Of a stretch of DNA of 64,000 bases, positions 1 to 20,114 are shown piece after piece. Every line of letters starts with the position of its first letter. Positions within the stretch are counted from its first letter, which is position 1. The stretch lies in the NCBI RefSeq assembly GCF_988243305.1, contig NZ_OZ547136.1. One strand, written 5' to 3'. A program made the translations under genes and the position numbers. The notes beneath the pieces were generated by a model. It searched no databases, had not been told where the DNA came from, and saw only the letters and a list, made by a program, of their open reading frames with translations.

Positions 1-1010
1 TCTATCCCCTGATAATGGCGTTGCAGAGTAATCACGCCGCCCGCATGCGACGGGTTAAGTTGTGGTGCCATCGGGATTGACTGGTACTGGGTCGTTTCTC
101 GCTCCCCGGCATACATCATCACACTCATATCATCTTGTGCGCTCAGGCTACGTTCATAGCGCAACCCAGCCTGAGTTTGCTTGATGGTTTTTCGCGTGTC
201 GTACTGTTCAGCGCGTGGCGCTTGTTGCGGATTCGCCTTCCATTCTGCTTCGGTTAGCCCACCTGGGTCATCTGCTTTGATATCCACACTATTGAAAATC
301 AGGCTTAATTTGCTGGCGTCATCAATGCGTACGCCCAGTTTGGCATTGGCTAAATTTTTCTGTGCGCCACTATGATCACGATAGCCGTGGGTCGTAAAGC
401 GCGTGGTTGAGACGGTGTAATCGACATCGCCAGGCTGAGTGCCGTCGCCCATTGCGCCTGTTGCTTTCAGCCCATAGCGCCAGCTGCCAAAACTGCCGTA
501 GTAACTACTGGCTTCAATGGTTGGTGGCTGTTGTCCGGTCTGGGTGATGACATTCATTACACCGCCAGACGCGTTGCCATACAGAGCAGAGAAGGGGCCG
601 CGCAGCACTTCCACATTTTGTACACTGCTTAAATCGATGTTGGATGTTTGCCCTTGTCCGTCGGGCATGGTGGCGGGAATACCGTCCACATACAGGCGAA
701 TACCGCGAATTCCGTAAGTGGAGCGGGAGCCAAATCCGCGAATCGACAGCTGTAAATCTTGCGCATAGTTCTGCCGGTTTTGTACCTGCAAACCAGGCAC
801 GCTGGTCAGTGATTCGGACAAGTTAATGCGCGGTGTTGCCAGGCGCATCTCCTCGCCATCCACCACGCTCACGGCTGCTGGGGTATCCAGTTCTGAAACC
901 ACCTGCGGTGCGGCACTGACAATCATGGCCTGTTCATCAGCGGCAAAAACAACGGGGGAAAGGACAAGCAGTGCGGGCAAAACGGTCTGTCGGACGGAAA
1001 AAATCTTCAT
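1..1010 (-). CDS. yncD: TonB-dependent outer membrane receptor, 5' part (N-terminal ~336 aa; gene continues beyond window start)
   Basis: Reverse-strand translation from ATG (complement at 1008-1010) gives MKIFSVRQTVLPALLVLSPVVFA signal peptide and plug-domain-like sequence; divergent from yncE as in K-12. Not in ORF track because it runs off the window edge. Confidence 0.75.
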   Translation of the reverse strand, partial: MKIFSVRQTVLPALLVLSPVVFAADEQAMIVSAAPQVVSELDTPAAVSVVDGEEMRLATPRINLSESLTSVPGLQVQNRQNYAQDLQLSIRGFGSRSTYGIRGIRLYVDGIPATMPDGQGQTSNIDLSSVQNVEVLRGPFSALYGNASGGVMNVITQTGQQPPTIEASSYYGSFGSWRYGLKATGAMGDGTQPGDVDYTVSTTRFTTHGYRDHSGAQKNLANAKLGVRIDDASKLSLIFNSVDIKADDPGGLTEAEWKANPQQAPRAEQYDTRKTIKQTQAGLRYERSLSAQDDMSVMMYAGERETTQYQSIPMAPQLNPSHAGGVITLQRHYQGI

Positions 1011-1251
1011 GAAAAAAGCCAGGTTAAGAATGGGAAAACGCCGCCATGGTAATAAAATTGTAAATATATGGAAAACGAAACGGCACGATACGTTAAGTAA
1101 TTGAGAAAATTGTAGTCGTAACGGCAAGAAATGCTCCACATTTGAGAAAATAATGATTACCATTCCCATTTATAACAAGAGCGTAACGATGATTACGCTT
1201 AGCGAAGCATTGTGAAGCAGCAAAAATATCGGTTCATCAAAGGGAGTCGTC

Positions 1252-2313
1252 ATGCATTTACGTCATCTGTTTTCATCGCGCCTGCGTGGTTCATTACTGT
1301 TAGGTTCATTGCTTGTTGCTTCATCATTCAGTACGCAGGCTGCAGAAGAAATGCTGCGTAAAGCGGTAGGTAAAGGTGCCTACGAAATGGCTTATAGCCA
1401 GCAGGAGAACGCGCTGTGGCTCGCCACTTCGCAAAGCCGCAAACTGGATAAAGGCGGCGTGGTTTATCGTCTTGATCCGGTTACTCTGGAAGTGACGCAG
1501 GCGATCCATAACGATCTCAAGCCGTTTGGTGCCACCATCAATAACACGACTCAGACGTTGTGGTTTGGTAACACTGTAAACAGCGCGGTCACGGCGATAG
1601 ATGCCAAAACGGGCGAAGTGAAAGGCCGTCTGGTGCTGGATGATCGTAAGCGCACGGAAGAGGTGCGCCCGCTGCAACCGCGTGAGCTGGTAGCTGATGA
1701 TGCCACGAACACCGTTTACATCAGTGGTATTGGTAAAGAGAGCGTGATTTGGGTCGTTGATGGCGAGAATATCAAACTGAAAACCGCCATCCAGAACACC
1801 GGTAAAATGAGTACCGGTCTGGCGCTGGATAGCAAAGGCAAACGTCTTTACACCACTAACGCTGACGGCGAATTGATTACCATCGACACCGCCGACAATA
1901 AAATCCTCAGCCGTAAAAAGCTGCTGGATGACGGCAAAGAGCACTTCTTTATCAACATTAGCCTTGATACCGCCAGGCAGCGTGCATTTATCACCGATTC
2001 TAAAGCCGCAGAAGTGTTAGTGGTCGATACCCGTAATGGCAATATTCTGTCGAAGGTTGCGGCACCGGAATCACTGGCTGTGCTGTTTAACCCGGCGCGT
2101 AATGAAGCCTACGTAACGCATCGTCAGGCAGGTAAAGTCAGTGTGATTGACGCGAAAAGCTATAAAGTGGTGAAAACGTTCGATACGCCGACTCATCCGA
2201 ACAGCCTGGCGCTGTCTGCCGATGGCAAAACGCTGTATGTCAGTGTGAAACAAAAATCCACTAAACAGCAGGAAGCTACCCAGCCGGACGATGTGATTCG
2301 TATTGCGCTGTAA
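1252..2313 (+). CDS. yncE: PQQ-like beta-propeller periplasmic protein YncE
   Basis: 353 aa ORF with ATG start and N-terminal signal peptide; recognised as YncE by sequence and by position between yncD and ansP. Confidence 0.9.
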   Translation: MHLRHLFSSRLRGSLLLGSLLVASSFSTQAAEEMLRKAVGKGAYEMAYSQQENALWLATSQSRKLDKGGVVYRLDPVTLEVTQAIHNDLKPFGATINNTTQTLWFGNTVNSAVTAIDAKTGEVKGRLVLDDRKRTEEVRPLQPRELVADDATNTVYISGIGKESVIWVVDGENIKLKTAIQNTGKMSTGLALDSKGKRLYTTNADGELITIDTADNKILSRKKLLDDGKEHFFINISLDTARQRAFITDSKAAEVLVVDTRNGNILSKVAAPESLAVLFNPARNEAYVTHRQAGKVSVIDAKSYKVVKTFDTPTHPNSLALSADGKTLYVSVKQKSTKQQEATQPDDVIRIAL

Positions 2314-2394
2314 TAGATATGGCGAGGGTGAAAACGGAGAGACTTGCCTGACTTTTATCACGCCGTATCCGGCACCTTCGTCAGTAATTTGAAT

Positions 2395-2421
2395 TTGCCC
2401 GGCACGTAGCCGGGCAATTTT
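2395..2421. terminator. GC-rich hairpin (gcccggc-acgta-gccgggc) with flanking T/A runs; probable bidirectional terminator between convergent yncE and ansP
   Basis: Inverted repeat read directly; followed by aatttt on + and preceded by A/T-rich run. Confidence 0.5.
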
Positions 2422-2425
2422 GCAA

Positions 2426-3925
2426 TTAACTCGCCGTTTCAGGCTTAAACACAATTTCCTGTTGTTCTTCATCTTCCTCGACGACTGGCGCAGTGCTGTG
2501 AATTTCAGCAACGCGTTTGCGCACACCAAACCAGCCTATAACCAGCAGAATACCGATAATCGGCAGCGCCGCGATGGTATAAGTCCCGTTCGGGTAATCG
2601 AACGCCATCAGCACCAGGACGCTCAGCAAAAACAGTAATGTCAGCCAGGAAGTGAAGGGCGCGCCAGGCAGTTTAAAACTGACATCCGCGGCTTTGCCTT
2701 CTTTAATCGCTTTACGCAGGCGCATCTGGCACACGATGATAAACGCCCATGAAGCGATGATTCCCAGCGACGCGAAGTTCAACACAATCTCAAATACGCG
2801 CGACGGCACCAGATAGTTGAGGAATACGCCGACGACATACACAACCAGTGTCGCCAGAATCCCGGCATACGGCACATGCTGACGACTCATTTTCGCCATA
2901 AAACTCGGTGCGGAACCGCCCATCGCCATTGAGCGCAGAATACGTCCGGTGCAGTACAGACCTGAATTCAGGCTGGAGAGGGCAGCGGTCAGCACCACAA
3001 TGTTCATAATGCTGCCGATATATGGCACACCCAGTTTAGAGAAAAACGTCACGAACGGACTTTGCCCCGCCTGATACGCGCTCCACGGCAATAACATAAC
3101 CAGCAACACCACGGAGCCGACGTAAAACAGGCCAATACGCCAAATCACACTGTTAATCGCTTTAGGCACCATGGTCTGCGGATCTTTACATTCTCCGGCA
3201 GCTGTACCCACCATTTCAATGGAGGCAAAAGCAAACACTACGCCCTGAATCAACACCAGCGCAGGCAGCAAACCGTGGGGGAAGAAGCCGCCATTATCGG
3301 TGATTAAATGAAAGCCAGTGGTGTTGCCATCCAGCGGCTGACCACTACCGAGGAACACTGTACCCACGACCAAAAAGGTCACAATGGCGAGCACTTTAAT
3401 AAGCGCAAACCAGAACTCCATCTCCGCAAACCATTTCACACCGATCATATTCATGGTGCCAACGATGGTAAGTGCAGCGAGCGCAAAGACCCACTGCGGT
3501 ACACCACCAAATGCGCCCCAGTAATGCATATACAGTGCAACGGCGGTAATATCGACAATCCCCGTCATCGCCCAGTTGATGAAGTACATCCAGCCTGCAA
3601 CGTAAGCGGCTTTCTCTCCTAAAAACTCACGGGCATAAGAGACAAAACTGCCACTGGAAGGGCGGTGTAACACCAGCTCACCCAATGCACGCAGAATAAA
3701 AAACGAAAACAAGCCACAAATTAAATAGACCAGTGCCAGTGCTGGACCCGCCATTTGCAGTCGGGCTCCCGCGCCTAAAAACAAACCCGTACCAATCGCG
3801 CCGCCAATGGCGATCATCTGTACCTGGCGATTGCCCATCGCTTTGTGATACCCCTCTTCGTGGGCATTAAGCCAGCGGCGTTTCGCGGCGTGTTGATCTG
3901 AAGTGTCGGTGTCGTGTTTACTCAT
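2426..3925 (-). CDS. ansP: L-asparagine permease (APC family)
   Basis: ORF track gives 516 aa; the recognised AnsP sequence begins at internal MSKHDTDTSD (499 aa), so start placed at 3925. Multi-TM amino acid permease. Confidence 0.9.
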   Translation of the reverse strand: MSKHDTDTSDQHAAKRRWLNAHEEGYHKAMGNRQVQMIAIGGAIGTGLFLGAGARLQMAGPALALVYLICGLFSFFILRALGELVLHRPSSGSFVSYAREFLGEKAAYVAGWMYFINWAMTGIVDITAVALYMHYWGAFGGVPQWVFALAALTIVGTMNMIGVKWFAEMEFWFALIKVLAIVTFLVVGTVFLGSGQPLDGNTTGFHLITDNGGFFPHGLLPALVLIQGVVFAFASIEMVGTAAGECKDPQTMVPKAINSVIWRIGLFYVGSVVLLVMLLPWSAYQAGQSPFVTFFSKLGVPYIGSIMNIVVLTAALSSLNSGLYCTGRILRSMAMGGSAPSFMAKMSRQHVPYAGILATLVVYVVGVFLNYLVPSRVFEIVLNFASLGIIASWAFIIVCQMRLRKAIKEGKAADVSFKLPGAPFTSWLTLLFLLSVLVLMAFDYPNGTYTIAALPIIGILLVIGWFGVRKRVAEIHSTAPVVEEDEEQQEIVFKPETAS

Positions 3926-4191
3926 TGCTCTCCCTGATTGCTTTAATGAAAAAGTCATATAAGTTGCCATGAACAATGTTTATTCATCCTGGCGATGATA
4001 GTTATCACCATTATTCTTTATGGGTATAAAACTATCGGCGCAGCATCCTACCCGTTATCGATAAACGATGCAAAACATCCCCTTACAATCCTGAAGGGGA
4101 ATAATACAACTGACGAAAAAATGACAAATCCTTTTGCTGGTTAACCTGTGTACTGTCCTACACTTAATCTTTAAAAGATTGTGAGGGGCAT

Positions 4192-4809
4192 ATGATTAAG
4201 GTGTATGGCGTACCCGGATGGGGCTCTACAATCAGTGAGCTGATGCTAACACTGGCTGATATTCCTTATCAGTTCGTTGATGTCAGTGGTTTTGACCACG
4301 AGGGAACCTCACGCGAGTTATTGAAAACCCTGAACCCGTTGTGTCAGATTCCGACACTGGCGCTGGAAAATGACGAGATTATGACGGAGACAGCGGCGAT
4401 TGCATTGATGGTTCTCGATCGTCGCCCGGACCTTGCGCCACCGGTTGGGCGCGCCGAACGTCAGCAGTTTCAACGGCTATTGGTCTGGCTGGTTGCTAAT
4501 GTCTATCCAACATTCACTTTCGCCGATTACCCTGAGCGTTGGGCTCCTGACGCACCCGAACAGTTAAAGAATAATGTTATTGAATATCGTAAATCGCTTT
4601 ATATCTGGCTGAATTCACAATTGACCGCTGAACCTTATGCCTTTGGCGAGCAACTAACGCTGGTGGACTGTTATCTCTGCACCATGCGCACATGGGGGCC
4701 GGGGCATGAATGGTTTCACGATAATGCGCAGAATATCAGTGCGATTGCTGAAGCTGTATGTCAGTTACCGAAATTACAAGAAGTATTAAAAAGGAATGTC
4801 ATTATTTAA
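4192..4809 (+). CDS. yncG: Glutathione S-transferase-like protein
   Basis: 205 aa, ATG start; GST-like N-terminal thioredoxin-fold pattern; position after ansP as in K-12. Confidence 0.8.
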   Translation: MIKVYGVPGWGSTISELMLTLADIPYQFVDVSGFDHEGTSRELLKTLNPLCQIPTLALENDEIMTETAAIALMVLDRRPDLAPPVGRAERQQFQRLLVWLVANVYPTFTFADYPERWAPDAPEQLKNNVIEYRKSLYIWLNSQLTAEPYAFGEQLTLVDCYLCTMRTWGPGHEWFHDNAQNISAIAEAVCQLPKLQEVLKRNVII

Positions 4810-5029
4810 CAATAATGCCGGAGGTTAATGTTAATGAATCACTGGCGTAATTAACTGGATATCCATTTGTTTGCTATGAATAGTAATTAAAGTTGGTACA
4901 ACTATTTATATGATTGATGTAATTTCGTTTTTTATATGAAATATCAATTTAATATAATCCGAAAATAAAACATCTTTTCGCATGTAGAGAAACATGTCGA
5001 TATGATAGTGCAGTGCAGATCATGTCATC

Positions 5030-5210
5030 AGGGTAGGGCGGTAGCGTATTTAATCAGGGAAAGATTACGCAACGCTGCTTTTTTGTATTGAACGATTCGC
5101 ATTTTATGTTTAAAAATTGCGATATTCCTTATTTCCTGAAGCTGTTTTTATTGCTTATACATGATCAAATACTCCTTACATAATTAAGGAGAACAAAATG
5201 GAACTTAATA
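5030..5210 (+). mobile_element. Remnant of H-repeat (ISAs1-family) element left end, ~150-180 bp, truncated right after the transposase start codon
   Basis: Near-identical to the 5' leader of the H-repeat copies at 10255-10440 and 14945-15095 (cagggaaagat...ttatgtttaaaaattg...gatcaaatactccttacataattaaggagaaca-ATG-GAACTTAA), then diverges. Confidence 0.6.
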
Positions 5211-5348
5211 CACGCCAACAATTTGTATTACTTAAATAGACCAGTGAAGGTACGCATCAGAACATCCGGTGAAGTGATTAATATTTCGTTGAATATTTCT
5301 CCCGATTTTTGAAACCTGCTGCTGTAGAAATTCTGAACAGGAGGAATT

Positions 5349-5633
5349 ATGCCTTTAGCAGCCAAACTCACCGACAAAGGCACCCAGCACGACGGTTATT
5401 ACGAGACCGTCATCACCGCCGGGTCATCCACCGTCTTTATCGATGGTCTTCCCGCAGCCCGTCAGGGAGATCCGCTGACGCCGCATGCTAAACCGAAGCA
5501 TCCCCCTCATCCCCGTAAAATCGCCAGAGGTTCTTCAACCGTCTTTATTGACGGCCTGCCCGCCGCCAGAAGCGGTGATGCTGTTGACTGCGGCGGCGTG
5601 GTTATTGGTGGCGGTACGGTAAATATAGGCTGA
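5349..5633 (+). CDS. PAAR-domain protein (T6SS spike tip)
   Basis: 94 aa; AGGAGG RBS 6-11 nt upstream; repeated GSSTVFIDGLPAAR(Q/S)GD motifs typical of PAAR; immediately upstream of vgrG. Confidence 0.75.
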   Translation: MPLAAKLTDKGTQHDGYYETVITAGSSTVFIDGLPAARQGDPLTPHAKPKHPPHPRKIARGSSTVFIDGLPAARSGDAVDCGGVVIGGGTVNIG

Positions 5634-5651
5634 TATGTCTGAGAGGTATTT

Positions 5652-7616
5652 ATGTCCTTAAAAGGTCTTCGCTTTACGCTGGAGGTTGACGGCCAGGAGC
5701 CGGACACCTTTGCAGTGGTGAATTTCAGGTTAATCCAGAACCAGTCATATCCGTTTGTGATGAGTGTGGATGTTGCCAGCGACTCTTTTATGCAGACGGC
5801 GGAGATGCTGCTGGAGAAGAAGGCGACACTGACCATCTGGCAGGGCGCAGTGGCGCAGCGTTATGTCACCGGCGTGGTGGCGGGTTTTGGCATGCAGGAG
5901 AATAACGGCTGGCAGATGCGTTATCACCTGCGTATTGAGCCGCCGTTATGGCGGTGCGGGCTGCGGCAGAACTTTCGTATCTTCCAGCAGCAGGATATCC
6001 GGACGATATCGGCCACGTTACTGAACGAGAACGGCGTCACGGAGTGGACGCCGCTGTTTTATGAGGACCATCCGGCGCGGGAGTTCTGTGTCCAGTACGG
6101 AGAGAGCGACCTGGCGTTTCTGTCCCGGCTGTGGGCGGAGGAGGGAATTTTCTTCTTTGAGCGGTTTGCGGCGGACAGTCCGGAGCAGAAGCTGACGCTG
6201 TGCGACGATGTGGCGGGGCTGTCACAGGCGGGGGAGTTTCCGTTTAACCCGGACACATCGGCAGGAGCGGAGACGGAGTGTGTCAGTATGTTCCGTTATG
6301 AGGCGCATGTCCGCCCGTCATCGGTGCAGAGCCAGGATTACACGTTTAAGGTGCCGGACTGGCCGGGGATGTATGAGCAGCAGGGTGAGAACCTGAACGG
6401 ACAGCTGGCGCAGTATGAGATATTTGATTATCCGGGAAGGTACAAGGATGAACAGCACGGCAAGGATTTCACGCTGTACCGGATGGAGAGCCTGCGCAGT
6501 GATGCGGAAAAGGCCACAGGGCAGAGTAATTCACCGAAGCTGTGGCCGGGAACGCGGTTTACGCTGACGGGGCATCCGCAGAAGATGCTGAACCGTGAAT
6601 GGCAGGTGGTACAGAGCATACTGTCAGGAAGCCAGCCGCAGGCGCTGCACGGCAGCCAGGGGAGAGGAACCACGCTGGGCAATCAGTTAGAGGTGATACC
6701 GGCGGACCGGACGTGGCGTCCACGGCTGCAAAGCAAACCGAAGGTGGACGGGCCACAGAGCGCCATTGTCACCGGTCCTGCGGGAGAGGAAATCTTCTGC
6801 GACGAACACGGACGTGTGCGAGTGCAGTTTCACTGGGACAGGTATAACCCGGCAACGGAGGCGAGTTCGTGCTGGGTGAGGGTGTCACAGGCGTGGGCGG
6901 GGCCGGGGTTCGGTAACCTGGCGATACCGCGGGTGGGCCAGGAGGTGATTGTTGATTTCCTGAACGGCGACCCGGACCAGCCGATAATCATGGGACGGAC
7001 ATACCATGAGGACAACCGTTCACCGGGGAGTCTGCCGGGGACGAAGACGCAGATGACGATACGGTCGAAGACCTATAAAGGTAGCGGATTTAACGAGCTG
7101 CGGTTTGAAGACGCCACCAGTAATGAGCAGGTGTATATCCATGCGCAGAAGAACATGGATACGGAGGTGCTCAACGACCGGACAACGGATGTGAAACATG
7201 ACCATACGGAAACCATCGGTAACAACCAGAAGATAACGGTGGTGAAGGGCCAGACGGTGAATGTGGGGAGCAAAAAGGAAGGTGGTCATGACCAGAAAGT
7301 GACAGTGGCGAATGACCAGACCATTACGGTACAAAACGATCAGCGGCTGGATGTTACCCACGATCGTCACAAGGATGTAGGGAACGATCAAATCAGTAAG
7401 ATAATAGGAAAAGATACCGAAGAAGTCGTGAAATCCCAGGATATTAAAGTTGGAGAAGATTACAGCCTGACAGTTACCAACAGCCTCACCATTAAAGTCG
7501 GTGAATGCTTACTGAAAATGAATAAGGACGGTACTATCATTCTCAATGGTAAAAGTATCCAGATTGAAGGAAAAGATAAAATCAATATTTTCGGCGCAGA
7601 TATTGATCTGGATTAA
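5652..7616 (+). CDS. vgrG: T6SS spike protein VgrG with divergent C-terminal tail
   Basis: 654 aa; canonical VgrG N-terminus (GLRFTLEVDG...PPLWRCGLRQNFRIFQ) and gp27/gp5-like body; last ~90 aa and underlying DNA (from ~7380) AT-rich and unlike the canonical VgrG C-terminus preserved at 11572-11916. Confidence 0.9.
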   Translation: MSLKGLRFTLEVDGQEPDTFAVVNFRLIQNQSYPFVMSVDVASDSFMQTAEMLLEKKATLTIWQGAVAQRYVTGVVAGFGMQENNGWQMRYHLRIEPPLWRCGLRQNFRIFQQQDIRTISATLLNENGVTEWTPLFYEDHPAREFCVQYGESDLAFLSRLWAEEGIFFFERFAADSPEQKLTLCDDVAGLSQAGEFPFNPDTSAGAETECVSMFRYEAHVRPSSVQSQDYTFKVPDWPGMYEQQGENLNGQLAQYEIFDYPGRYKDEQHGKDFTLYRMESLRSDAEKATGQSNSPKLWPGTRFTLTGHPQKMLNREWQVVQSILSGSQPQALHGSQGRGTTLGNQLEVIPADRTWRPRLQSKPKVDGPQSAIVTGPAGEEIFCDEHGRVRVQFHWDRYNPATEASSCWVRVSQAWAGPGFGNLAIPRVGQEVIVDFLNGDPDQPIIMGRTYHEDNRSPGSLPGTKTQMTIRSKTYKGSGFNELRFEDATSNEQVYIHAQKNMDTEVLNDRTTDVKHDHTETIGNNQKITVVKGQTVNVGSKKEGGHDQKVTVANDQTITVQNDQRLDVTHDRHKDVGNDQISKIIGKDTEEVVKSQDIKVGEDYSLTVTNSLTIKVGECLLKMNKDGTIILNGKSIQIEGKDKINIFGADIDLD

Positions 7617-7631
7617 TCTGGAGAAATTAAC

Positions 7632-8573
7632 ATGAATATTGAAAATGAAACTGGTTTTCCTCACTTTCAGTTCGAAAAAGTGGGATATTATGGTGAGTTA
7701 TTCACAGTAGTGGTAGTTAATCAGACATTTGATTTTTCATATAGCGGCGGTCTCTGTCTGATTGCGGATGAGCAGCGACTGCCACTGATGACCGACTCCT
7801 GGTACGGCGAACCGGAAAGCAGCAGTCTTAAAACAGCAACCGATTTGGTTTGCAGAAAAGTCAGGGCAGATGTTTTATTAAATGGACACGCATGGCATGC
7901 CACCGGGGAAACCACTCGATGGCAGGCCAGTTTACAGGTGGGTAATCTTCAGCGCCAATTTGATATATGTGGCCCTTGCCAATGGCAATATATATCTAAC
8001 CGCTGGCAACTTAGCGAACCTGAATTAACTGATCGGGTACTGTTACGCCATGAACTGGCGTCAGCCAGTGAATTTAATCCTGTAGGCATTGTTATTCCCT
8101 CCCTGATAACGCTTGGCGATAAATCGCCCTGTCCAGCTCCACAGTTATCTGCCTCACCAGGAGCTATTTGCCGTAGCTGGCCTTCACGATTGCGCTATGC
8201 CAGAGGTTTTACAGAACAGTGGCAAAAGACTGTTCAACCTTTTTATCCAGATGAATTCGATTTTGCATTCATGAATTATTCTCCACCAGAACAACAATAC
8301 GATGGTTATTTAATTGGCAATGAAAAAATTATATTGAACGGCCTGTTACCTTCTAAAATGGAACAAACTTGTTTCCTTCCAGATATTAGACTATTGGCGT
8401 ATTTGTTTTACCGCTCTGATAAAAACGTAGAACTGCGCCCATTGTTGGCTGACACACTGACCATCCACACAGACGATGAGCAACTAACACTACTCTGGCG
8501 CTTAACGCTCCCCGTGGATTCTCTTCCACAACGTATTGTTTTGACGACGGAGCAGAGGGGACCTCATGGCTGA
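7632..8573 (+). CDS. DUF2169-family T6SS adaptor protein
   Basis: 313 aa; N-terminus MNIENETGFPHF...FTVVVVNQTFDF fits the DUF2169 signature; 15 nt after vgrG stop and overlaps the next gene by 8 nt. Confidence 0.75.
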   Translation: MNIENETGFPHFQFEKVGYYGELFTVVVVNQTFDFSYSGGLCLIADEQRLPLMTDSWYGEPESSSLKTATDLVCRKVRADVLLNGHAWHATGETTRWQASLQVGNLQRQFDICGPCQWQYISNRWQLSEPELTDRVLLRHELASASEFNPVGIVIPSLITLGDKSPCPAPQLSASPGAICRSWPSRLRYARGFTEQWQKTVQPFYPDEFDFAFMNYSPPEQQYDGYLIGNEKIILNGLLPSKMEQTCFLPDIRLLAYLFYRSDKNVELRPLLADTLTIHTDDEQLTLLWRLTLPVDSLPQRIVLTTEQRGPHG

Positions 8574-9699
8574 AAATCATATTGGTTGTCGTGAATCGAA
8601 GTACGTTGCGATATGTATTGCGCCTGATGTCTGCAAGGTTGGTGATGCGATAGTGCCGTTTGACAGCTTTCAGAACCTGACACATGAGAAAATTTATATC
8701 AGCAATGTCAGGGCACGGGGCAATCCAATACTGACCGTGGACTGTATTATTGCAGGTACACGAAGTAATGCCGGGAAAGGTGTCAGTTCTGGCACCAGTC
8801 TGGGCAGCGGTGACTGCCGGATACTGACAGGCGTGGATCATATAAAGTGCAAGGGAAAGCCGGTAGCCAGGAATCTTTCGCTGGTTGCCATGAATAATGA
8901 TAATACTGTTGGAAAACTGTATACCCAGACAAACCCGCCAAATCAGATAATACCTGTTAAAGAATCATCGCTTTGGGCCAAGTATCTGGAACTGCAAATA
9001 CAACAGCAAGAGTTTGAGCTTGAGTCCAAAAAGCAAGAAGCAGATGCAATGATAGGATTAGGCAAGGCATTTATTAATGGCTGGTATATGTTGGGTGCAT
9101 TGATTGCCAAAGGTCAGATGCAAAATGACATTGCCCAAATGGAAAGTAATATTGCTCTGGCGAGAGGGTTGGGGATGGATACCCAAATTATGGAGCGGGC
9201 GAATGAGACCAACAGGGAGGTAATGGAAACTATTGATCCTAGAGAGCCATTGTTGAAACCTGCCAATGAAACCCAAGCAATGGCGATGGAGGTTGAGCCA
9301 TGGCTGGAACTTATGACCGGGGTTGGAGCACTGGTGAAAGGTTTGGTCAAGTTTTCAGCGAAGTTTGCAATAAAATCGGTTGGCAGAATGGGGAGGAGCG
9401 GTGCTAAAATTGTGCTGGATGCAAATGGATTGCCTATTCCTGTTCCTCCAAGCGTTGGCGCTGCGGGAAGAGTTCCGAGAGTATTACAAACTGGAGGTAA
9501 TACTCTTGAGGCAAGAACTGCCAGGGAGTTAAATGAATTTTTTGGTAAAAATATTAACAGGAGAGAATGGGGGAAAGCTTTAGAAAAGTTGAAAAAAGAT
9601 TTACGCTTACGAGGTGATCACCATGGTCGAATACTTGATAATGGTGATTATATTGATGACTCAGGAAATATTTTAGGAAACATAGAAGATTATTTATGA
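8566..9699 (+). CDS. DUF4150 (PAAR-like) N-terminal domain fused to unclassified C-terminal toxin domain; predicted T6SS effector
   Basis: 377 aa; N-terminal ~125 aa with PDVCK motif typical of PAAR-like DUF4150; C-terminal ~250 aa not recognisable by eye (ends ...RGDHHGRILDNGDYIDDSGNILGNIEDYL); start overlaps DUF2169 stop (ATGGCTGA). Confidence 0.7.
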   Translation: MAENHIGCRESKYVAICIAPDVCKVGDAIVPFDSFQNLTHEKIYISNVRARGNPILTVDCIIAGTRSNAGKGVSSGTSLGSGDCRILTGVDHIKCKGKPVARNLSLVAMNNDNTVGKLYTQTNPPNQIIPVKESSLWAKYLELQIQQQEFELESKKQEADAMIGLGKAFINGWYMLGALIAKGQMQNDIAQMESNIALARGLGMDTQIMERANETNREVMETIDPREPLLKPANETQAMAMEVEPWLELMTGVGALVKGLVKFSAKFAIKSVGRMGRSGAKIVLDANGLPIPVPPSVGAAGRVPRVLQTGGNTLEARTARELNEFFGKNINRREWGKALEKLKKDLRLRGDHHGRILDNGDYIDDSGNILGNIEDYL

Positions 9700-10175
9700 T
9701 TAAGAATATACAATCAAGGCTTACCCCGATATCTCATGAATATCCAAGTTGTGATGAGTGCTATGCTAGCCTCTTGATTTACACAGGTAATACTCACCCT
9801 AATGAAATAAGTATTCACTTAGAACTTGAGCCAACATCAATTAATATAAAAGGAGATGAAATTATTACTCTATCGGGAAAGAAAAGATATGCAAAAAATT
9901 CATATTGGATGCTCTCGTCAGAAAATCTAGTGAACTCGAAAGATATTCGAGAACATCTGGATTGGCTACTTCACAAACTTGGACCTAAATCATCAAATAT
10001 TGCAAAATTGCAAGCATTAGAAAATATTTCAATGGGTATTGACTGTACCTGGAGATCATTGAATTGGCACGGTGGGCCAACTTTATGGCCTGAGCAGATG
10101 AAAATAATGGCTAATCTTGGATTGGAGTGTTCATTTGATATTTATTTCGTCGGCAATGAAGATGGCAATCTTTAA
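9696..10175 (+). CDS. Candidate cognate immunity protein (cytoplasmic, no signal peptide)
   Basis: 159 aa; start overlaps effector stop (ATGA), suggesting translational coupling; AT-rich; no recognisable family. Confidence 0.5.
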   Translation: MIKNIQSRLTPISHEYPSCDECYASLLIYTGNTHPNEISIHLELEPTSINIKGDEIITLSGKKRYAKNSYWMLSSENLVNSKDIREHLDWLLHKLGPKSSNIAKLQALENISMGIDCTWRSLNWHGGPTLWPEQMKIMANLGLECSFDIYFVGNEDGNL

Positions 10176-10254
10176 TTATTGCTCGCAAATTTTTAATAAA
10201 CAAATAGCACAATAAAATACTCGGTATCTATGGTATATACCTAATAAACAAGGG

Positions 10255-11571
10255 CAGGGAAAGATCATCAGAAGTACACTTTTTGTACCAGGGAAAGATC
10301 ACGTAACGCTGCTTTTTTGTACTAAATAATTCGCATTTTATGTTTAAAAATTGAGATATTCCTCATTACCTGAAGCTGTTTTTTATTGAGTATACATGAT
10401 CAAATACTCCTTACATAATTAAGGAGAACACAATGGAACTTAAAAAATTGATGGAACATATTTCTATTATCCCCGATTACAGACAAGCCTGGAAAGTGGA
10501 GCATAAATTGTCGGATATTCTACTGTTGACTATTTGTGCCGTTATTTCTGGTGCAGAAGGCTGGGAAGATATAGAGGATTTTGGGGAAACACATCTCGAT
10601 TTTTTAAAACAATACGGTTATTTTGAAAATGGTATTCCTGTTCACGATACCATCGCCAGAGTTGTATCCTGTATCAGTCCTGCAAAATTTCACGAGTGCT
10701 TTATTAACTGGATGCGAGATTGCCATACTTCAGATGATAAAGACGTCATCACAATTGATGGAAAAACGCTCCGGCACTCTTATGACAAGAGTCGCCGCAG
10801 GGGAGCGATTCATGTCATTAGTGCGTTCTCAACAATGCACAGCCTGGTCATCGGACAGATCAAGACGGATGAGAAATCCAATGAGATTACAGCTATCCCA
10901 GAACTTCTTAACATGCTGGATATTAAAGGAAAAATCATCACAACTGATGCGATGGGTTGCCAGAAAGATATTGCAGAGAAGATACAAAAACAGGGAGGTG
11001 ATTATTTATTCGCTGTAAAAGGAAACCAGGGGCGGCTAAATAAAGCCTTCGAGGAAAAATTTCCGCTGAAAGAATTAAATAATCCAGAGCATGACAGTTA
11101 CGCAATTAGTGAAAAGAGTCACGGCAGAGAAGAAATCCGTCTTCACATTGTTTGCGATGTCCCTGATGAACTTATTGATTTCACGTTTGAATGGAAAGGT
11201 CTGAAGAAATTATGCGTGACAGTCTCCTTTCGGTCAATAATAGCAGAACAAAAGAAAGAGCCAGAAATGACGGTCAGATATTATATCAGTTCTGCTGATT
11301 TAACCGCAGAGAAGTTCGCCACAGCAATCCGAAACCACTGGCACGTGGAGAATAAGCTGCACTGGCGTCTGGACGTGGTAATGAATGAAGACGACTGCAA
11401 AATAAGAAGAGGAAATGCCGCAGAATTATTTTCAGGGATACGGCACATCGCTATTAATATTTTAACGAATGATAAGGTATTCAAGGCAGGGTTAAGATGT
11501 AAGATGCGAAAAGCAGCCATGGACAGAAACTACCTGGCGTCAGTCCTTGCTGGGAGCGGGCTTTCGTAATC
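10255..11571 (+). mobile_element. Intact H-repeat (ISAs1-family) element
   Basis: Left-end leader shared with two other copies; contains full 378 aa transposase ORF; right end abuts vgrG fragment. Confidence 0.8.
10433..11569 (+). CDS. H repeat-associated (ISAs1-family) transposase
   Basis: 378 aa [55 protein letters not shown]..., the conserved H-rpt ORF found with Rhs elements. Confidence 0.85.
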
Positions 11572-11916
11572 TTGCCCTGGCAGGAGCATAAGACGACGGG
11601 GAACCATGTCAGCCTGGTGGAGGGAAAGCACAGTCTGGAGGTGAAAGGCGATCTGGCGAGGAAGGTGAGTGGCACGCTGGGGATAAAGGTGGACGGGGAT
11701 ATCGTGCTGGAGAGCTGCAGCCGGATAAGCCTGAAGGTGGGCGGTTCGTTTATCGTTATTCAGTCGGGCGGTGTGGATATAGTGGGGCCGAAGATAAATC
11801 TTAATGGTGGGGGGAGTCCGGGGACACCGGTACCGACACTGCAACCCACTGTCCTGAACACTTTAGTCACTAATGATACGGATAGTAATACTGATGATGA
11901 TATCGGTAATGATTAG
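11572..11916 (+). pseudogene. vgrG: vgrG 3' fragment (canonical VgrG C-terminal ~110 aa), orphaned by H-repeat insertion or recombination
   Basis: Translation ...SRISLKVGGSFIVIQSGGVDIVGPKINLNGGGSPGTPVP matches canonical VgrG C-terminus; ORF-track start is a TTG immediately after transposase stop, so no genuine start. Confidence 0.7.
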
Positions 11917-12093
11917 ACCAGAGTGAAGTTCATGTTCTCGTAGCGGGATAATCATTCAGATAAAGATAACGGATGACGGTAGTAATAATAATACAATAAT
12001 ACTGTGATTTTCTGCTTTCTAAGCAGAGATGCTCTGTGAATGAATAATTCATACTCGTTACATGTTTTATAATCTTAATAAGGACTATTGATA

Positions 12094-14166
12094 ATGATAA
12101 TCAGCCCTCCAATATTGCATGCGCATATAGACACTGAAAAAGACTCTGACTGGGTAAACAGAATGATGTCTGTTGATCCAGAGAGAAATTTCCCAATGAA
12201 TAGCGGTCGTTCTTGGCATGGTGGAGTTCATTTGAACGGCAATCTGTCAGAGACTGTTAGGTGTATTGCCGATGGGAAGGTTATTTCAATACGCCAGCCA
12301 GAACCAGCGAAAAATACAGTTCCCCCGTTAAATTATAACGGAGTTACGGATAAAGGCTATGTTCTGATAAAACATGAAACAGAAATCGGTAGTGGAGAAG
12401 AGGGTAAAATCGTCTATTACTCATTATATATGCACCTGAGAAGCATTGACAGTAATGTGCAGCCGGGAAACACGCTATACCGGAAAGAACCGGTTGGTGC
12501 AGCAGGGATGGTGGACGGACAGAACGCCTTTCATTTTCAGATTTTTTGTGATGATGAAAACATTCAGAAAATCACAGGAAGAATATCACCGGAAACAGAC
12601 CTGAATAAAGATGGACGAACTAATGTGGTTTACGGTGATAGTCATTTTTATCTCCCTACCGGAACACCGATTTATGGGGACATGCCGGAAGAAAACTCGC
12701 TTGCGAACAACAGTCCGGTACAAAGAACCAGCGTGCCATTGTATGTCACAATGAGTTTTGATAAAGGCAATTGTACGATGGTGACGCGTCAGCAGCATGA
12801 AGTGCTGAGTGATTCCTATACTGAAGTAGGTTCTCCCTTGATTAATGCTGATGGTAAGGATTATGAATACAATCTCTATTCCTACGCGCTGCAACTCTAT
12901 CCGAAAAGCCCAAGTGCCGGTTATGAGATGCTGCGTTTTGGTCGGGTTGTTAATACAGAATATGAAGAATTAGTCCCGGCGGATGCGCCGCTGTGGAGAA
13001 CAATCAATACGCCACAGGGTAAAGGCGTTGTTAACTTAGGGGCGAGAGATATCAGGGTTTACAGCGACGGTGATTTTCCACACTGGACAGGGTGGAAACT
13101 GGTGAACGATGATGCGGACACCAACAGCCAGTGCAATTCACCAACAATCCTGTGTACAACCCGCAATGACCTAAGTCGGATGATTTGTCATTTTCCGCTA
13201 GAATGGGACAGCGCCACCGTGGAATCACGGTTTGAGTGGCTGAAATCACCCAATGACGTATTGAGTAAGCCGATGACAGAGCCTGACCTGGATTTGCTGA
13301 TAGAACACTGTAAGGCGCTTTGTTTGGTAGAGAATCCGTTACCTGCCAGGCGTGTATGGCATTTTGATCCCAGGCAGTTTATTGCACATTTCAGGAAATG
13401 TGGATGGTTAGGAGAAAATGATATTATAAGTGTGGTAAGACGTTATCAAAATGCTTATCCCATGACATCAGAACTTACAAGACCATTAAGTAAAGACACT
13501 CTAATTGAGCGGATTACTAGCCAAGGACAAAATAGCAGTGGTGAGATGATAAGACCTGCAGGGTTGAAAAATGAACTGTCAAAGTCACTAAGGAAGTACT
13601 TAATTACAACCCCATTGCGGATTGCGCATTATTTCGGTCAGATGGCGAGAGAAACAGGCAGATTTTCGTCTTTTATAGAGAATGGTGATTTGAGTTATTT
13701 TGATATGTATGAGCCAGGAACAGAACAGGGACTTAAGCTTGGAAATAATGTTGTTGGTGATGGTGCAAGATTTAAAGGCAGAGGTACCATACATCTAACT
13801 GGTCGTGAGAATTATAGAAATTATGGAAAGTATAGAAATCCGTCAGATGATGATTTTTTTACTACAGGACCCAATAACCAACTCCCAGTTGAAAATGCCT
13901 ATTTTTCTTGCGATGCCGGGGGATACTTTTGGGCAAGTAAGCAAAAATACATAATGGTAAGCCATCGATTGACACCTAGTGGTAGTTTAGGCGTTAATTA
14001 TTGGGCGGATAAAGGATGTAGTTTGTCACATGCCAGAGAAGTTACACGGCGAATAAACCCAGCAGCAGATGGCTTCGATTTAGTACGTTGGCCAGCATTT
14101 GAGCATTCTTGGTATGTATTGAATGATGAAATAACACCTCCACTTAATTACATAAGGATTGTTTAA
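12094..14166 (+). CDS. Predicted bifunctional peptidoglycan hydrolase effector: N-terminal M23-like peptidase domain, C-terminal GH19/lysozyme-like domain
   Basis: ORF-track start 12088 is TTG; ATG at 12094 has AAGGA RBS ~10 nt upstream (690 aa). N-terminal region aligns by eye to LytM/M23 (HGGVHL...YYSLYMHL...AFHFQIF) with non-canonical metal-ligand positions; C-terminal region carries GH19-like motifs (AHYFGQMARETG...GRGTIHLTGRENY...GGYFWASK). Confidence 0.7.
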   Translation: MIISPPILHAHIDTEKDSDWVNRMMSVDPERNFPMNSGRSWHGGVHLNGNLSETVRCIADGKVISIRQPEPAKNTVPPLNYNGVTDKGYVLIKHETEIGSGEEGKIVYYSLYMHLRSIDSNVQPGNTLYRKEPVGAAGMVDGQNAFHFQIFCDDENIQKITGRISPETDLNKDGRTNVVYGDSHFYLPTGTPIYGDMPEENSLANNSPVQRTSVPLYVTMSFDKGNCTMVTRQQHEVLSDSYTEVGSPLINADGKDYEYNLYSYALQLYPKSPSAGYEMLRFGRVVNTEYEELVPADAPLWRTINTPQGKGVVNLGARDIRVYSDGDFPHWTGWKLVNDDADTNSQCNSPTILCTTRNDLSRMICHFPLEWDSATVESRFEWLKSPNDVLSKPMTEPDLDLLIEHCKALCLVENPLPARRVWHFDPRQFIAHFRKCGWLGENDIISVVRRYQNAYPMTSELTRPLSKDTLIERITSQGQNSSGEMIRPAGLKNELSKSLRKYLITTPLRIAHYFGQMARETGRFSSFIENGDLSYFDMYEPGTEQGLKLGNNVVGDGARFKGRGTIHLTGRENYRNYGKYRNPSDDDFFTTGPNNQLPVENAYFSCDAGGYFWASKQKYIMVSHRLTPSGSLGVNYWADKGCSLSHAREVTRRINPAADGFDLVRWPAFEHSWYVLNDEITPPLNYIRIV

Positions 14167-14170
14167 AACA

Positions 14171-14674
14171 ATGAATTTTAAAAAAACAATAATCACTTCG
14201 GTAGGTTTGATATTTATTTCATTCTCTTTTGTGGCAGAGTGCTCTCAACTCAAAAATTTGAATAATTACTCAGTGATGCTTTGTGGAAAAGTGTCAAGTA
14301 ATATCCTTGATGATATTGGTGGTTATAAAGAAAGAGATAAAAAATCCGAAATGGTAGATTTACTTATATTAATTAGTAATGACGAGCCTATCGGTGTTTC
14401 TGAGACCAAAGTGATTTCTAATGGTAAAATATATTTTAAGGGGGAAAGTACTATGAACTTGGATGCCTCATTCATTATGACAATAAATGGTGGAGTTCAT
14501 ACTGACACTGTCACTTATATATCAAAGAAGAATAAAATTATCGGGGGCTACTTTTATAATAATGAGAGTAAAACTGATAAGCTTAAGGAAGTATATATCT
14601 CAAACACAGGAACTGTATATCATATAAATATTGAAAGTGTCAGCGATGATAAATGTCTTGATAAATTTAAGTAA
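14171..14674 (+). CDS. Candidate periplasmic immunity protein (Sec signal peptide)
   Basis: ORF-track start 14159 is TTG; ATG at 14171 gives MNFKKTIITSVGLIFISFSFVAEC... with hydrophobic signal sequence; 4 nt after effector stop; AT-rich. Confidence 0.5.
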   Translation: MNFKKTIITSVGLIFISFSFVAECSQLKNLNNYSVMLCGKVSSNILDDIGGYKERDKKSEMVDLLILISNDEPIGVSETKVISNGKIYFKGESTMNLDASFIMTINGGVHTDTVTYISKKNKIIGGYFYNNESKTDKLKEVYISNTGTVYHINIESVSDDKCLDKFK

Positions 14675-14944
14675 CGATAAGGCAAGGATGATTGATTGGG
14701 TTTAGTTAAGTTTCGAGAACAAATTTCCGCGGCAGAGAGTATAAATGTAGGGGCAAGAATGCTAAAATCGTGAAGTGCACCACAACTATAATTCCAGTTT
14801 ACTTTGTTTATTTGATTGTAATTTAACCATTAAATGATTAGGTTTTTTAGAAAAGGACGTCTGATGAATGTTTAAATTAATTTTGAATACATTTCAATTA
14901 TTTTGTTGTATGTTGGCAAGGTCAAATAAGACATAATTTAATGG

Positions 14945-15650
14945 CAGGGAAAGATCATCGTAAGTACACTTTTTGTACTAAATAATTTGCATTTTATGTT
15001 TAAAAATTGAGATATTCCTCATCACCTGAAGCTGTTTTTTATTACTTATATATGATCAAATACTCCTTACATAAATAAGGAGAACAAAATGGAACTTAAA
15101 AAATTGATGGAACATATTTCTATTATCCCCGATTACAGACAAGCCTGGAAAGTGGAACATAAATTATCGGATATTCTACTGTTGACTATTTGTGCTGTTA
15201 TTTCTGGTGCAGAAGGATGGGAAGATATAGAGGATTTTGGGGAAACACATCTCGATTTTTTGAAGCAATATTGTGATTTTGATAATGGTATTCCTGTTCA
15301 CGATACCATTGCCAGAGTTGTATCCTGTATCAGTCCTGAAAAATTTCATGAGTGCTTTATTAACTGGATGCTTGACTGCCATTCTTCAGATGATAAAGAC
15401 GTCATTGCAATTGATGGAAAAACGCTCCGGTACTCTTATGACAAGAGTCGTCGCAAGGGAGCGATTCACGTTATTAGTGTGTTCTCAATAATGCACAGTC
15501 AGATTCCTTGGAAGATCAAGACGAATGAAAAAAACAATGAGATTACAGCTGTTTCTGAATTTCTTAACATAATGGGTATTAAAGGAAAAATAATTGCACC
15601 GATCCAATGTGATACCAGAAAGACATCGCTAAGAAGATAGCTATAGACAA
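14945..15650 (+). mobile_element. Truncated H-repeat (ISAs1-family) element, 5' ~700 bp only
   Basis: Same left-end leader as the copy at 10255; transposase ORF frameshifted and truncated (183 aa) relative to the intact copy. Confidence 0.75.
15089..15640 (+). pseudogene. H-repeat transposase, truncated/frameshifted
   Basis: 183 aa, highly similar to residues 1-175 of the intact copy, then diverges and stops. Confidence 0.75.
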
Positions 15651-15713
15651 TTATTACCCTCCGTCAGCCCTTGTTAAGCGAGGAGAGACGTAATCTGTCC
15701 AGTCCCCTAATGC

Positions 15714-16811
15714 TTATAAAGCCCATCGATTTCGCCCACTTTCTTTCGCCCGGTATAACGCAGCGTCGGCATCTGAAATAATTTGTTCAGCCGTTTTTGC
15801 GGGAGCAGAACAGGTAATCCCCTGACTAACCGTAACGAATGCATTAACAGCAGATGCCTGATGTGGGATAGCTGCCAGTTTAAGTTCTTGCTTCACTCTG
15901 GCTGCTACCGTCTTTGCTTCCGGCAATGTTGCATTAAAAAGTATGATGGCAAACTCTTCGCCACCATAACGGACAACAACATCCTCCGACTGGCGAGTTG
16001 AACGCTGTAGAGCGTCGGCAACTTGTATTAGACAACGATCCCCAGCAGGATGCCCGTAAGTGTCGTTGTAACGTTTAAAAAAATCGACATCCAGCATAAT
16101 AAGAGCAAATGACCCGCCGTTATCCATCGCGTCGTGTAAGATACTGTTCATTGCACGTCGGTTTGCTATCCCAGTTAAAGGATCACGATGTGCTAATGCA
16201 TCAAGGCGATTAATTAACTGGTTGTTATAACTGTTTTGTACCCATGCTTCTTCAAACCAACGTAACAAAATGAGTCGCCCACCATATAGCGCCAGTGAAA
16301 AAATACACCATACAACAGCAAAATGAATATTGATCTGTTGATTAAGCATAAGACTCGCTATTGGAGTGGTGAACCATAAGGGAATGACAAATGCGAGCAA
16401 TGATGGGGTATGGAAATAAAGTGCGACAACGCCACTAAGCATTAATAATACACATAGTGGATAAGCAAACTGCAGCGTCCAGTACGCAATAAAGTGATAA
16501 CTACACCATGACCATAGCAGGCTCAGGGCAACTAATAGCACCTGGATAGGTAATGTTTTTTGCCGAGGGATGAGTAGTAAACCACTGCAAATCAGCAGAA
16601 TACCCGTTGCAGATATATCAATAGAATGTATAAGGCTTTTTTCATTTAACCAGGGTGGAGTAAGGTCATTAAACAGAACACGGCGCAGCAAAATTATCAA
16701 TGCAAAACTGACATTGATAAAAGCAAACCATGGCAAACTAATTGTCATGCCGCGGATAACCATATCGCGGCGTGTTTGCCACGAGTGATGCGTTTTTCTT
16801 CTTTCAGCCAT
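15714..16811 (-). CDS. Membrane-anchored diguanylate cyclase (GGDEF domain)
   Basis: 365 aa; N-terminal multi-TM region; C-terminal GGDEF domain with RYGGEEF active-site motif and conserved DVDFFKRYND...GH.AGD pattern; absent from this position in K-12. Confidence 0.85.
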   Translation of the reverse strand: MAERRKTHHSWQTRRDMVIRGMTISLPWFAFINVSFALIILLRRVLFNDLTPPWLNEKSLIHSIDISATGILLICSGLLLIPRQKTLPIQVLLVALSLLWSWCSYHFIAYWTLQFAYPLCVLLMLSGVVALYFHTPSLLAFVIPLWFTTPIASLMLNQQINIHFAVVWCIFSLALYGGRLILLRWFEEAWVQNSYNNQLINRLDALAHRDPLTGIANRRAMNSILHDAMDNGGSFALIMLDVDFFKRYNDTYGHPAGDRCLIQVADALQRSTRQSEDVVVRYGGEEFAIILFNATLPEAKTVAARVKQELKLAAIPHQASAVNAFVTVSQGITCSAPAKTAEQIISDADAALYRAKESGRNRWAL

Positions 16812-16857
16812 TTTTTAGCCAAATAAGGGCAGGAGACCTGCCCGATACAGAGTAAAA

Positions 16858-19367: not shown

Positions 19368-19370
19368 TGC

Positions 19371-19940: not shown

Positions 19941-20114
19941 GATATCGCCTCGCTATGAAGGGTGTTTTAAAAGCGTAGCTCGTAACGCAATAAGTAACGA
20001 AATTAACGGGATTGGCGATTTGCGAACGTGATGCATGTCCGCGATCGCACAAAATAGCCAGTGCGGCGTCTATTCCAGGTTATAAGTTGAGAAAACCACT
20101 AAGGGAAACGCCTG

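Follow-up and report, generated by a model that had tools for sequence, protein, structure and literature searches.

A c1882-type PAAR gene in front of a mosaic vgrG and a DUF2169/DUF4150 effector cluster in Escherichia coli

Described spike tips of the PAAR and DUF4150 types

The PAAR family was defined by two crystal structures, one of which is that of the c1882 protein of Escherichia coli CFT073. According to the title of PDB entry 4JIW, this structure represents the c1882 PAAR-repeat protein from Escherichia coli complexed with a VgrG-like beta-helix, and, judging by the titles of 4JIW and 4JIV, the c1882 crystal was grown on an engineered gp5-based helix. In both c1882 and VCA0105 of Vibrio cholerae, zinc is held by three His residues and one Cys residue (PMC10715212). 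The first zinc ligand of c1882 is H14, and the N-terminal segment is integral to the fold (bioRxiv 10.1101/2020.10.28.356139). The c1882-c1889 operon of CFT073 is a cryptic RfaH target that is bound by RfaH according to ChIP-seq and contains an ops element in its 5' leader; its promoter is covered by H-NS/StpA and silenced, and the operon is silent in rich medium (PMC9765446).

The DUF4150 ('PIPY') domain has been modelled as a PAAR-like cone without the zinc site (PMC11883445, PMC13373197). A working VgrG tip from DUF4150 requires a DUF2169 protein; PAAR genes are rarely located near DUF2169 genes, and the clusters encoding such DUF2169/DUF4150 tip complexes generally have no adjacent canonical PAAR gene (PMC11883445).

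The window, that is, the whole analysed stretch of 64,000 nt (contig NZ_OZ547136.1, assembly GCF_988243305.1), is a part of the E. coli chromosome, flanked by patD...ansP-yncG on one side and by yddH, nhoA, and nar genes on the other. The yncG..yddH interval is a recognised variable region in ExPEC genomes and carries vgrG copies (PMC12928451). The order of genes in the window, vgrG, DUF2169, DUF4150 toxin, and immunity gene, is that of the Agrobacterium VgrG2-Tap2-Tde2 cluster, Tvp class I, and synteny type B of Sachar et al. (2025). Unlike in DUF2169/DUF4150 tip clusters, a canonical PAAR gene stands before vgrG here, and the same is true of about 120 E. coli genomes. A canonical PAAR gene beside a DUF4150-type VgrG tip is slightly unusual, being one uncommon case when set against the survey of Sachar et al. 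(2025; PMC11883445). With a probability of roughly 0.85, the gene is a canonical orphan PAAR gene, an allele of c1882, which sits on a conserved head of the island behind which the VgrG tip and the cargo have been swapped.

The PAAR gene and its product

The PAAR gene has the following elements:

5339-5344, + strand: Shine-Dalgarno sequence AGGAGG, with a spacer of 4 nt to the ATG
5349-5633, + strand: PAAR gene with an ATG start, 94 aa, MPLAAKLTDKGTQHDGYYETVITAGSSTVFIDGLPAARQGDPLTPHAKPKHPPHPRKIARGSSTVFIDGLPAARSGDAVDCGGVVIGGGTVNIG (translation, Pfam, and NCBIfam)
5418-5474, + strand: first repeated segment of the protein, aa 24-42, AGSSTVFIDGLPAARQGDP
5526-5582, + strand: second repeated segment of the protein, aa 60-78, RGSSTVFIDGLPAARSGDA

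The preliminary description, made from the sequence alone, had presented this as a 94-aa ORF with an AGGAGG ribosome-binding site, encoding a stand-alone PAAR protein with two near-identical segments directly upstream of vgrG, and all of this holds. The vgrG gene, which has its own ribosome-binding site GAGAGG, starts at position 5652, 18 nt past the PAAR stop codon. The protein matches the Pfam family PF05488 (PAAR_motif) with E=5e-21 and 75.1 bits (cut-off 27) and the NCBIfam model NF033420 (T6SS PAAR protein, equivalog-domain) with 156.5 bits (cut-off 124) over residues 1-94 of 94. Its length equals that of the full NF033420 model, and the PAAR domain is the only domain found in the Pfam search. 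The protein is thus an 'orphan' PAAR by its sequence, having neither an N-terminal nor a C-terminal extension.

The highest similarity was found with chain D of 4JIW, c1882 of CFT073 (89 of 93 residues identical, 96%; E=1.6e-57). VCA0105 (4JIV; E=1.3e-32, aligned over aa 10-94) and gp5.4 of phage T4 (4KU0; E=4.8e-07) are minimal PAAR spike tips of the same family and size; the PAAR motifs and His/Cys positions of VCA0105 are conserved in the window protein. The sequences of these two are, however, more distant, and gp5.4 belongs to a phage and not to a T6SS. Compared with c1882 of Shneider et al. (2013), as represented by the deposited structure, the protein has equal length, the same motifs, and the same His/Cys ligands and differs by G40E, A47D, S75T, and V79I (window residue first). 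The exact 4JIW sequence occurs at the same locus in a CFT073-like O6:K2:H1 strain (L003). The gene was found in 688 of 5,426 complete E. coli genomes (689 records, all but eight of them at 95-100% identity). RefSeq names the protein (WP_001127492.1) a T6SS PAAR protein, so annotation pipelines label this allele correctly. By all sequence criteria tried, it is an ordinary, canonical, and already known member of the family, an allele of c1882. Whether the product adopts the PAAR fold, which the preliminary description had proposed to check by structure prediction, is answered by the crystal structure of a 96% identical protein, from which a conical beta fold is expected.

The internal repeat is well defined. 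The 14-aa sequence GSSTVFIDGLPAAR occurs in two exact copies (aa 25-38 and 61-74), whereas 2,000 shuffled versions of the protein gave exact internal repeats of at most 5 aa; in the extended 19-aa segments, 16 of 19 positions are identical. The DNA of the two segments shows an identity level of only 67%; of the 13 codons that differ, 10 are synonymous. These figures rule out a recent DNA duplication as the source of the repeat and indicate an old repeat kept by selection on the protein. PAAR motifs are located at aa 34-41 and 70-77, each beginning with a perfect LPAAR (aa 34-38 and 70-74), and at aa 2-9 (PLAAKLTD), where PLAAK (aa 2-6) represents a degenerate third copy with AAK; in paralogous E. 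coli PAAR proteins, this position reads PLAARL or PTAARL. The repetition of motifs pointed out in the preliminary description is therefore real; it is not a peculiarity of this gene, since such a repeat defines the family, and the degenerate motif at aa 2-9 had been overlooked.

A His or Cys residue follows each PAAR motif after 7 or 8 residues (H14, H46, and C81). Residues H14, H46, H51, H54, and C81 are invariant in eight E. coli alleles and paralogs and are aligned with those of 4JIW and 4JIV; H14, H46, H51/H54, and C81 can be considered candidate zinc ligands. The dN/dS ratio is 0.08-0.26 across alleles and paralogs and 0.08 (over 285 nt) between two lineages with the DUF4150 cargo, which indicates purifying selection on the gene. 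Three ORFs overlap it (5309-5491 and 5485-5622 on the + strand, 5507-5836 on the - strand). The PAAR frame is preferred because of its family matches and the purifying selection.

A terminator-like hairpin at positions 5578-5599 lies inside the PAAR coding sequence. The T run after it is weak, and the count of such sites falls within the expectation from shuffled sequences, so it was regarded as a chance match. An Rfam search of positions 1-20000 gave no match.

Mosaic VgrG and probable exchange of modules

The island downstream of the PAAR gene contains the following features:

5652-7616, + strand: mosaic vgrG, 654 aa (Pfam and NCBIfam), whose product ends bluntly in ...INIFGADIDLD and lacks a C-terminal extension
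7632-8573, + strand: single-domain DUF2169 (TvpA-type) chaperone, 313 aa (PF09937, E=4e-50; role according to PMC11883445 and PMC13373197)
8566-9699, + strand: DUF4150 ('PIPY', Tox-PAAR-like) effector, 377 aa (PF13665, 41.5 bits, cut-off 31, aa 16-116)
9696-10175, + strand: DUF4279 protein, 159 aa, presumed immunity protein (PF14106), with a 4-nt overlap with the effector stop
10289-11569, + strand: ISAs1-family (ISEc1, H-repeat) element with the transposase at 10433-11569 (DDE_Tnp_1, RefSeq annotation of L001, repeats)
11581-11865, + strand: 3' remnant of a vgrG, with a KINLNGGGSPG-type tip and the start of a C-terminal extension, without the N-terminal part
12088-14674, + strand: displaced cargo module, comprising a 692-aa M23-like protein (12088-14166) and a 171-aa protein (14159-14674)
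14945-15640, + strand: truncated second ISAs1 copy

The DUF2169 gene overlaps the start of the DUF4150 effector gene by 8 nt. The pairing of the effector with a DUF4279 protein is also observed in the related loci L006-L008. The genes downstream of the PAAR gene are an ordinary DUF2169/DUF4150 effector cluster, in which nothing is new in kind. No T6SS core genes were found in the 64,000-nt window, and the only vgrG piece in it besides the vgrG at 5652-7616 is the 3' remnant at 11581-11865. In a tblastn search, this remnant (~95 residues) matched aa 596-690 of the 118UI VgrG at 88% and aa 542-635 of c1883 at 67%. The 692-aa protein has a weak Pfam match to M23 (23.5 bits, below the cut-off of 28.7) and is named 'peptidase M23' in RefSeq. 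Together, the remnant and the M23-like/171-aa cargo are a displaced older tip-plus-cargo module.

VgrG tips and cargo were compared in about ten loci. In strain 118UI, a DNA-identical PAAR gene at the same locus is followed by an 801-aa VgrG and an M35 peptidase. The CFT073-like strain contains the PAAR gene, a 652-aa VgrG, and DUF4123 with an effector, and then a second PAAR-vgrG-M35 unit, while in SCU-204 a DUF2169/DUF4150 unit is followed by a PAAR-vgrG-M35 unit. The VgrG proteins encoded at the PAAR locus are 95-100% identical up to approximately residue 520 and diverge only beyond it. The first ~520 aa of the window VgrG belong to the common E. coli type and show ~97% identity with the VgrG of the E. 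coli 536 main cluster. The breakpoints in the vgrG DNA are located at approximately 7117-7475, and the GC content falls from ~0.60 to ~0.42 over positions 7000-7800. When comparing the window with the c1882 locus, the same chromosomal location beside yncG, the same leader with ops, and a vgrG gene directly after the PAAR gene can be noted. The differences begin further downstream: VgrG diverges after approximately aa 490-520, and the cargo consists of DUF2169 and DUF4150, whereas that of c1882 is DUF4123 and an effector.

The blunt tip of the window VgrG (...KVGECLLKMNKDGTIILNGKSIQIEGKDKINIFGADIDLD) has its relatives elsewhere. The last ~90 aa, which make up the end that a cap binds, are 86-88% identical to those of other Enterobacterales VgrG proteins (L007, L009) and only 16-27% identical to those of c1883, the native neighbour of c1882. 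Clusters of the vgrG-DUF2169-DUF4150 type are preceded by hcp in L007, which has DUF4279 at the end, and by a small unannotated ORF in L009 and L010; no PAAR homolog was detected in the fetched Enterobacterales loci with a matching VgrG tip (tblastn E>0.3). In E. coli 536, the main T6SS cluster is ordered hcp-vgrG-DUF2169-DUF4150 and encodes a blunt-ended VgrG; the 40 kb from tssM onward contain no PAAR homolog. Since the window tip matches PAAR-less DUF4150 loci and is unlike c1883, it apparently travels with the DUF4150 module and not with the PAAR gene; the cap-binding surface would thus be a part of the exchangeable cargo module rather than of the PAAR-containing head. For the same reason, the adjacent VgrG is more likely to have the DUF4150 toxin with its DUF2169 protein as its cognate cap. 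However, PAAR docking depends mostly on the geometry of the beta-helix, so the divergent tip sequence is no proof of incompatibility.

The yncG..yddH locus can be described as a constant head, the PAAR gene with the beginning of vgrG, behind which VgrG tips are exchanged along with the cargo. Module swapping gives a simple explanation for a PAAR gene beside DUF2169 and DUF4150 genes, and linkage to the conserved head is enough to explain its presence.

A similar organisation is known from the Rhs/H-repeat 'orphan module' loci of E. coli, in which displaced C-terminal toxin modules lie beside ISAs1/H-rpt elements. Like these loci, the window island has a conserved 5' part and exchangeable 3' tip-plus-cargo modules, as well as a displaced 3' remnant with a cargo pair and ISAs1 copies between the modules. 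What is exchanged here, unlike in Rhs loci, is not an Rhs C-terminal toxin but the C-terminus of VgrG together with the adaptor, effector, and immunity genes.

By analogy with the c1882/beta-helix complex and the literature on the family, the three PAAR-motif segments would form a small cone with pseudo-threefold symmetry and with a zinc ion bound by His/Cys ligands close to its apex. With its base resting on the blunt distal end of the trimeric VgrG beta-helix, the cone would sharpen the T6SS spike; the tip would then aid assembly and firing of the T6SS, as in the systems in which this was tested. In the PAAR-vgrG-cargo operon of the variable yncG..yddH locus, which has ops in its AT-rich leader, the PAAR gene would be the first cistron. 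Besides the PAAR gene, the conserved head appears to include the 5'-terminal four-fifths of vgrG, and the tip and cargo modules behind it would be exchanged by recombination. In the window, the incoming module may have consisted of the VgrG tip, DUF2169, the DUF4150 toxin, and DUF4279, and the older KINLN-type tip with its M23-like cargo was presumably pushed downstream of the ISAs1 element. The PAAR gene would have been kept from the head, and its product may serve either as a toxin-free cap for adjacent or other VgrG trimers or as a weak competitor for the adjacent tip. Probably, it still caps some VgrG trimer.

Two cap proteins and possible partners

The island was expected to encode two proteins of the tip type, and the second of them was recognised in the product of 8566-9699, which matches PF13665 and is preceded by the DUF2169 gene. 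This effector consists of a tip domain (aa 1 to ~125), a helical linker, and a polymorphic toxin (aa ~300-377); in its homologs, the N-terminus is kept and the C-terminus is variable. Residues 28-32 read A-I-V-P-F, so three of the four positions of the family motif P(I/V)P(Y/F) fit: the window protein has IVPF, unlike the family motif, and its close relatives have PVPF (P-V-P-F). Within this motif, P31 is invariant, and F32 is conserved in at least 90%. AlphaFold2 models of the full-length protein and of the N-terminal domain alone have low confidence in the tip domain (pLDDT 50-77; mean of 57.7 for the domain alone). The best Foldseek hits of these low-confidence models are the PAAR proteins 6p1z_D and 4jiv_D, which are not significant (E=0.017-0.2, rmsd 9-11 A). 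The C-terminal toxin (aa ~300-377) is confidently modelled, and Foldseek found no PDB match for it. The PAAR-like fold predicted for the DUF4150 domain thus follows from Pfam membership and published predictions.

The DUF4150 module occurs in about 120 E. coli genomes, compared with 688 for the PAAR gene. A search of contigs with the DUF2169 protein gave one locus, on a MAG contig, with 100% identity.

The presence of two tip proteins in one island had led to the proposal that the minimal PAAR protein and the DUF4150 toxin alternate on the same VgrG trimer, which would give toxin-free and toxin-loaded spike populations. Both genes are intact and belong to one apparent operon, the arrangement with an intact PAAR gene is kept in two diverged E. 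coli lineages (about 120 genomes, dN/dS 0.08), and VgrG2 of Serratia offers a precedent in that it takes either Rhs1 or Rhs2 (PMC13373197). On the other hand, this Serratia pairing, the sole published one found, involves a single class of tip proteins per VgrG (PMC13373197), and DUF2169 is reported to be rare near PAAR genes (PMC11883445). The window VgrG tip arrived with the DUF2169/DUF4150 module and resembles the tips of PAAR-less loci. Moreover, the PAAR gene is kept equally with unrelated cargoes, and no special explanation is needed for its retention here. Alternate capping is somewhat disfavoured by the origin of the tip and can be regarded as a possible but doubtful reading. Its strongest form, in which a canonical zinc PAAR competes with a DUF4150 toxin and its DUF2169 chaperone for a single mosaic VgrG tip, seems less likely still. 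If it were true, a single operon controlled by RfaH and H-NS would set the proportions of 'blank' and 'loaded' spikes, and the island would be a natural case of cross-class pairing, which is called rare in published DUF2169 surveys. The approximately 120 strains may provide a natural test case of how strict the choice of a VgrG tip between two cap classes is.

Alternatively, the PAAR protein might act mainly in trans, capping other VgrG trimers of the same T6SS, namely those of the main cluster or a second island, or heterotrimers. The median number of places with a vgrG copy is 5 per E. coli genome; the closest genome has 4. The ~97% identity of the first ~520 aa to the 536 main-cluster VgrG implies that the spikes fit one apparatus. 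Moreover, the main cluster of strain 536 lacks a PAAR homolog in the 40 kb from tssM, so a canonical PAAR would have to come from an island of this kind; a related possibility is that a T6SS with a PAAR-less main cluster obtains its canonical PAAR solely from this island. However, the 536 main-cluster VgrG is also blunt-tipped and encoded beside DUF2169 and may be no better a partner, and apart from the 3' remnant at 11581-11865 the window has no other vgrG piece. Action mainly in trans is a tentative suggestion, about as uncertain as alternate capping. The preferred reading, an allele of c1882 on a conserved head with an exchanged tip and cargo, is compatible with a cap for either the adjacent or other trimers.

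It is very unlikely that the PAAR gene is a hitch-hiking relic without a current function in this island: its place in a conserved recombination head, where it is DNA-identical in a strain with a different cargo and linkage could suffice to keep it, its position next to a truncated vgrG pseudogene in O145:H28, and the silence of the ortholog operon in rich medium (PMC9765446) would fit such a state, but the ORF is intact and has a strong ribosome-binding site, the zinc ligands and motifs are all conserved with dN/dS of 0.08-0.26 across alleles and paralogs, and the six E. coli loci that were retrieved and annotated contain no PAAR pseudogene.

The leader was searched for the ops consensus GGCGGTAGnnT on the non-template strand, and two features were recognised in it:

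5037-5047, + strand: ops (RfaH-recruitment) consensus GGCGGTAGCGT, an exact pattern match located 302 nt upstream of the ATG
5055-5208, + strand: left-end fragment of ISAs1/ISEc1 (H-repeat), right after ops, with the transposase ribosome-binding site and first codons

The leader between yncG and the PAAR gene has a length of 539 nt and a GC content of 33%. It is highly conserved across strains (531-539 of 540 positions identical; 531 of 540 between the window and the CFT073-like strain), and ops is found at the same position in five other strains (L001, L002, L003, L011, and L013). By analogy with the published CFT073 ortholog operon, H-NS probably silences the window operon, and RfaH is probably needed for its expression; if no expression were seen in rich laboratory medium, this would therefore be no argument against function. 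Promoter-like hexamers occur upstream of ops at 4931-4958 and 4977-5006; sites of this kind are no more numerous than expected by chance.

The left-end fragment following ops was also recovered by blastn. It belongs to the direct-repeat families D2 and D3, whose copies at 5055-5208, 10289-10443, and 14945-15099 are 79-95% identical.

C-terminal toxin of the DUF4150 effector

The C-terminus of the DUF4150 effector (8566-9699, + strand) is a putative polymorphic toxin, partnered by DUF4279. The last ~80 residues (aa ~300-377) are modelled confidently, with pLDDT of ~90, and neither a PDB match nor a Pfam family was found for them. The same region also occurs as a fusion partner of proteins of the Rhs, DUF637 (PF04830), and peptidoglycan-binding (PF01471) types. 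Relatives keep the first ~280 aa, with different toxins (PF14021, PF15532, PF15604, HNH/WHH, and ParB-like) swapped in behind. The 377-aa protein encoded in the window is intact and represents the common form (342 member sequences). In NZ_CP148331.1, the closest genome (99.5% identity), a single G-to-T substitution in codon 334 (window position 9565) converts Glu334 into a stop and cuts the toxin domain short.

A conserved stretch can be noted in the DUF4150 domain:

8854-8871, +: G-K-P-V-A-R stretch (aa 97-102)

G97 and A101 are conserved at a level of at least 90% among 20 relatives. The stretch is similar to a degenerate PAAR motif; this likeness is consistent with shared ancestry of the PAAR and DUF4150 tip families.

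Insertion element ends and an apparently displaced module

Left ends of the ISAs1/ISEc1 (H-repeat) element occur three times in the island:

5055-5208, +: first left end
10289-10443, +: second left end
14945-15099, +: third left end

Thus, there is an ISAs1 end ahead of each tip-plus-cargo module. The first copy is a 154-nt fragment inside the PAAR leader, immediately 3' of the ops element, which retains the transposase ribosome-binding site and the first transposase codons. Directly downstream of the ISAs1 transposase gene lie the following features:

11581-11865, +: orphan vgrG 3' remnant (KINLNGGGSPG-type tip and start of the extension)
12088-14166, +: M23-like protein, 692 aa
14159-14674, +: 171-aa ORF overlapping the M23-like gene

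Together they look like a displaced effector/immunity module, for which Rhs orphan toxins offer an analogue.

The ops element and T6SS clusters of other strains

The PAAR-vgrG operon has an AT-rich leader with an exact ops (RfaH) element, which is kept in five further E. coli strains:

5037-5047, +: ops element

Two main T6SS clusters have an identical 11-mer ~100 nt 5' of their vgrG gene:

Strain 536 (L005), 18398-18408: ops 11-mer
Strain MFDS1022581 (L012), 2255-2265: ops 11-mer

The main cluster of strain 536 has the order tssM...tssBC, hcp, vgrG, DUF2169, DUF4150 effector, and a PAAR homolog is absent from the 40 kb fetched around it (NC_008253.1, 245302-285471). If this is true of the whole cluster, islands like that of the window would be the only canonical PAAR source in such strains. 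In strain MFDS1022581 (NZ_CP169399.1, 4116224-4132496), repeated PAAR-vgrG-cargo units come after the main cluster, with a Tae4 amidase and a DD-metalloendopeptidase as cargoes and PAARs ~84% identical in DNA. In O145:H28 a truncated vgrG pseudogene adjoins an intact PAAR. These two genomes show the plasticity of PAAR-vgrG-cargo arrays.
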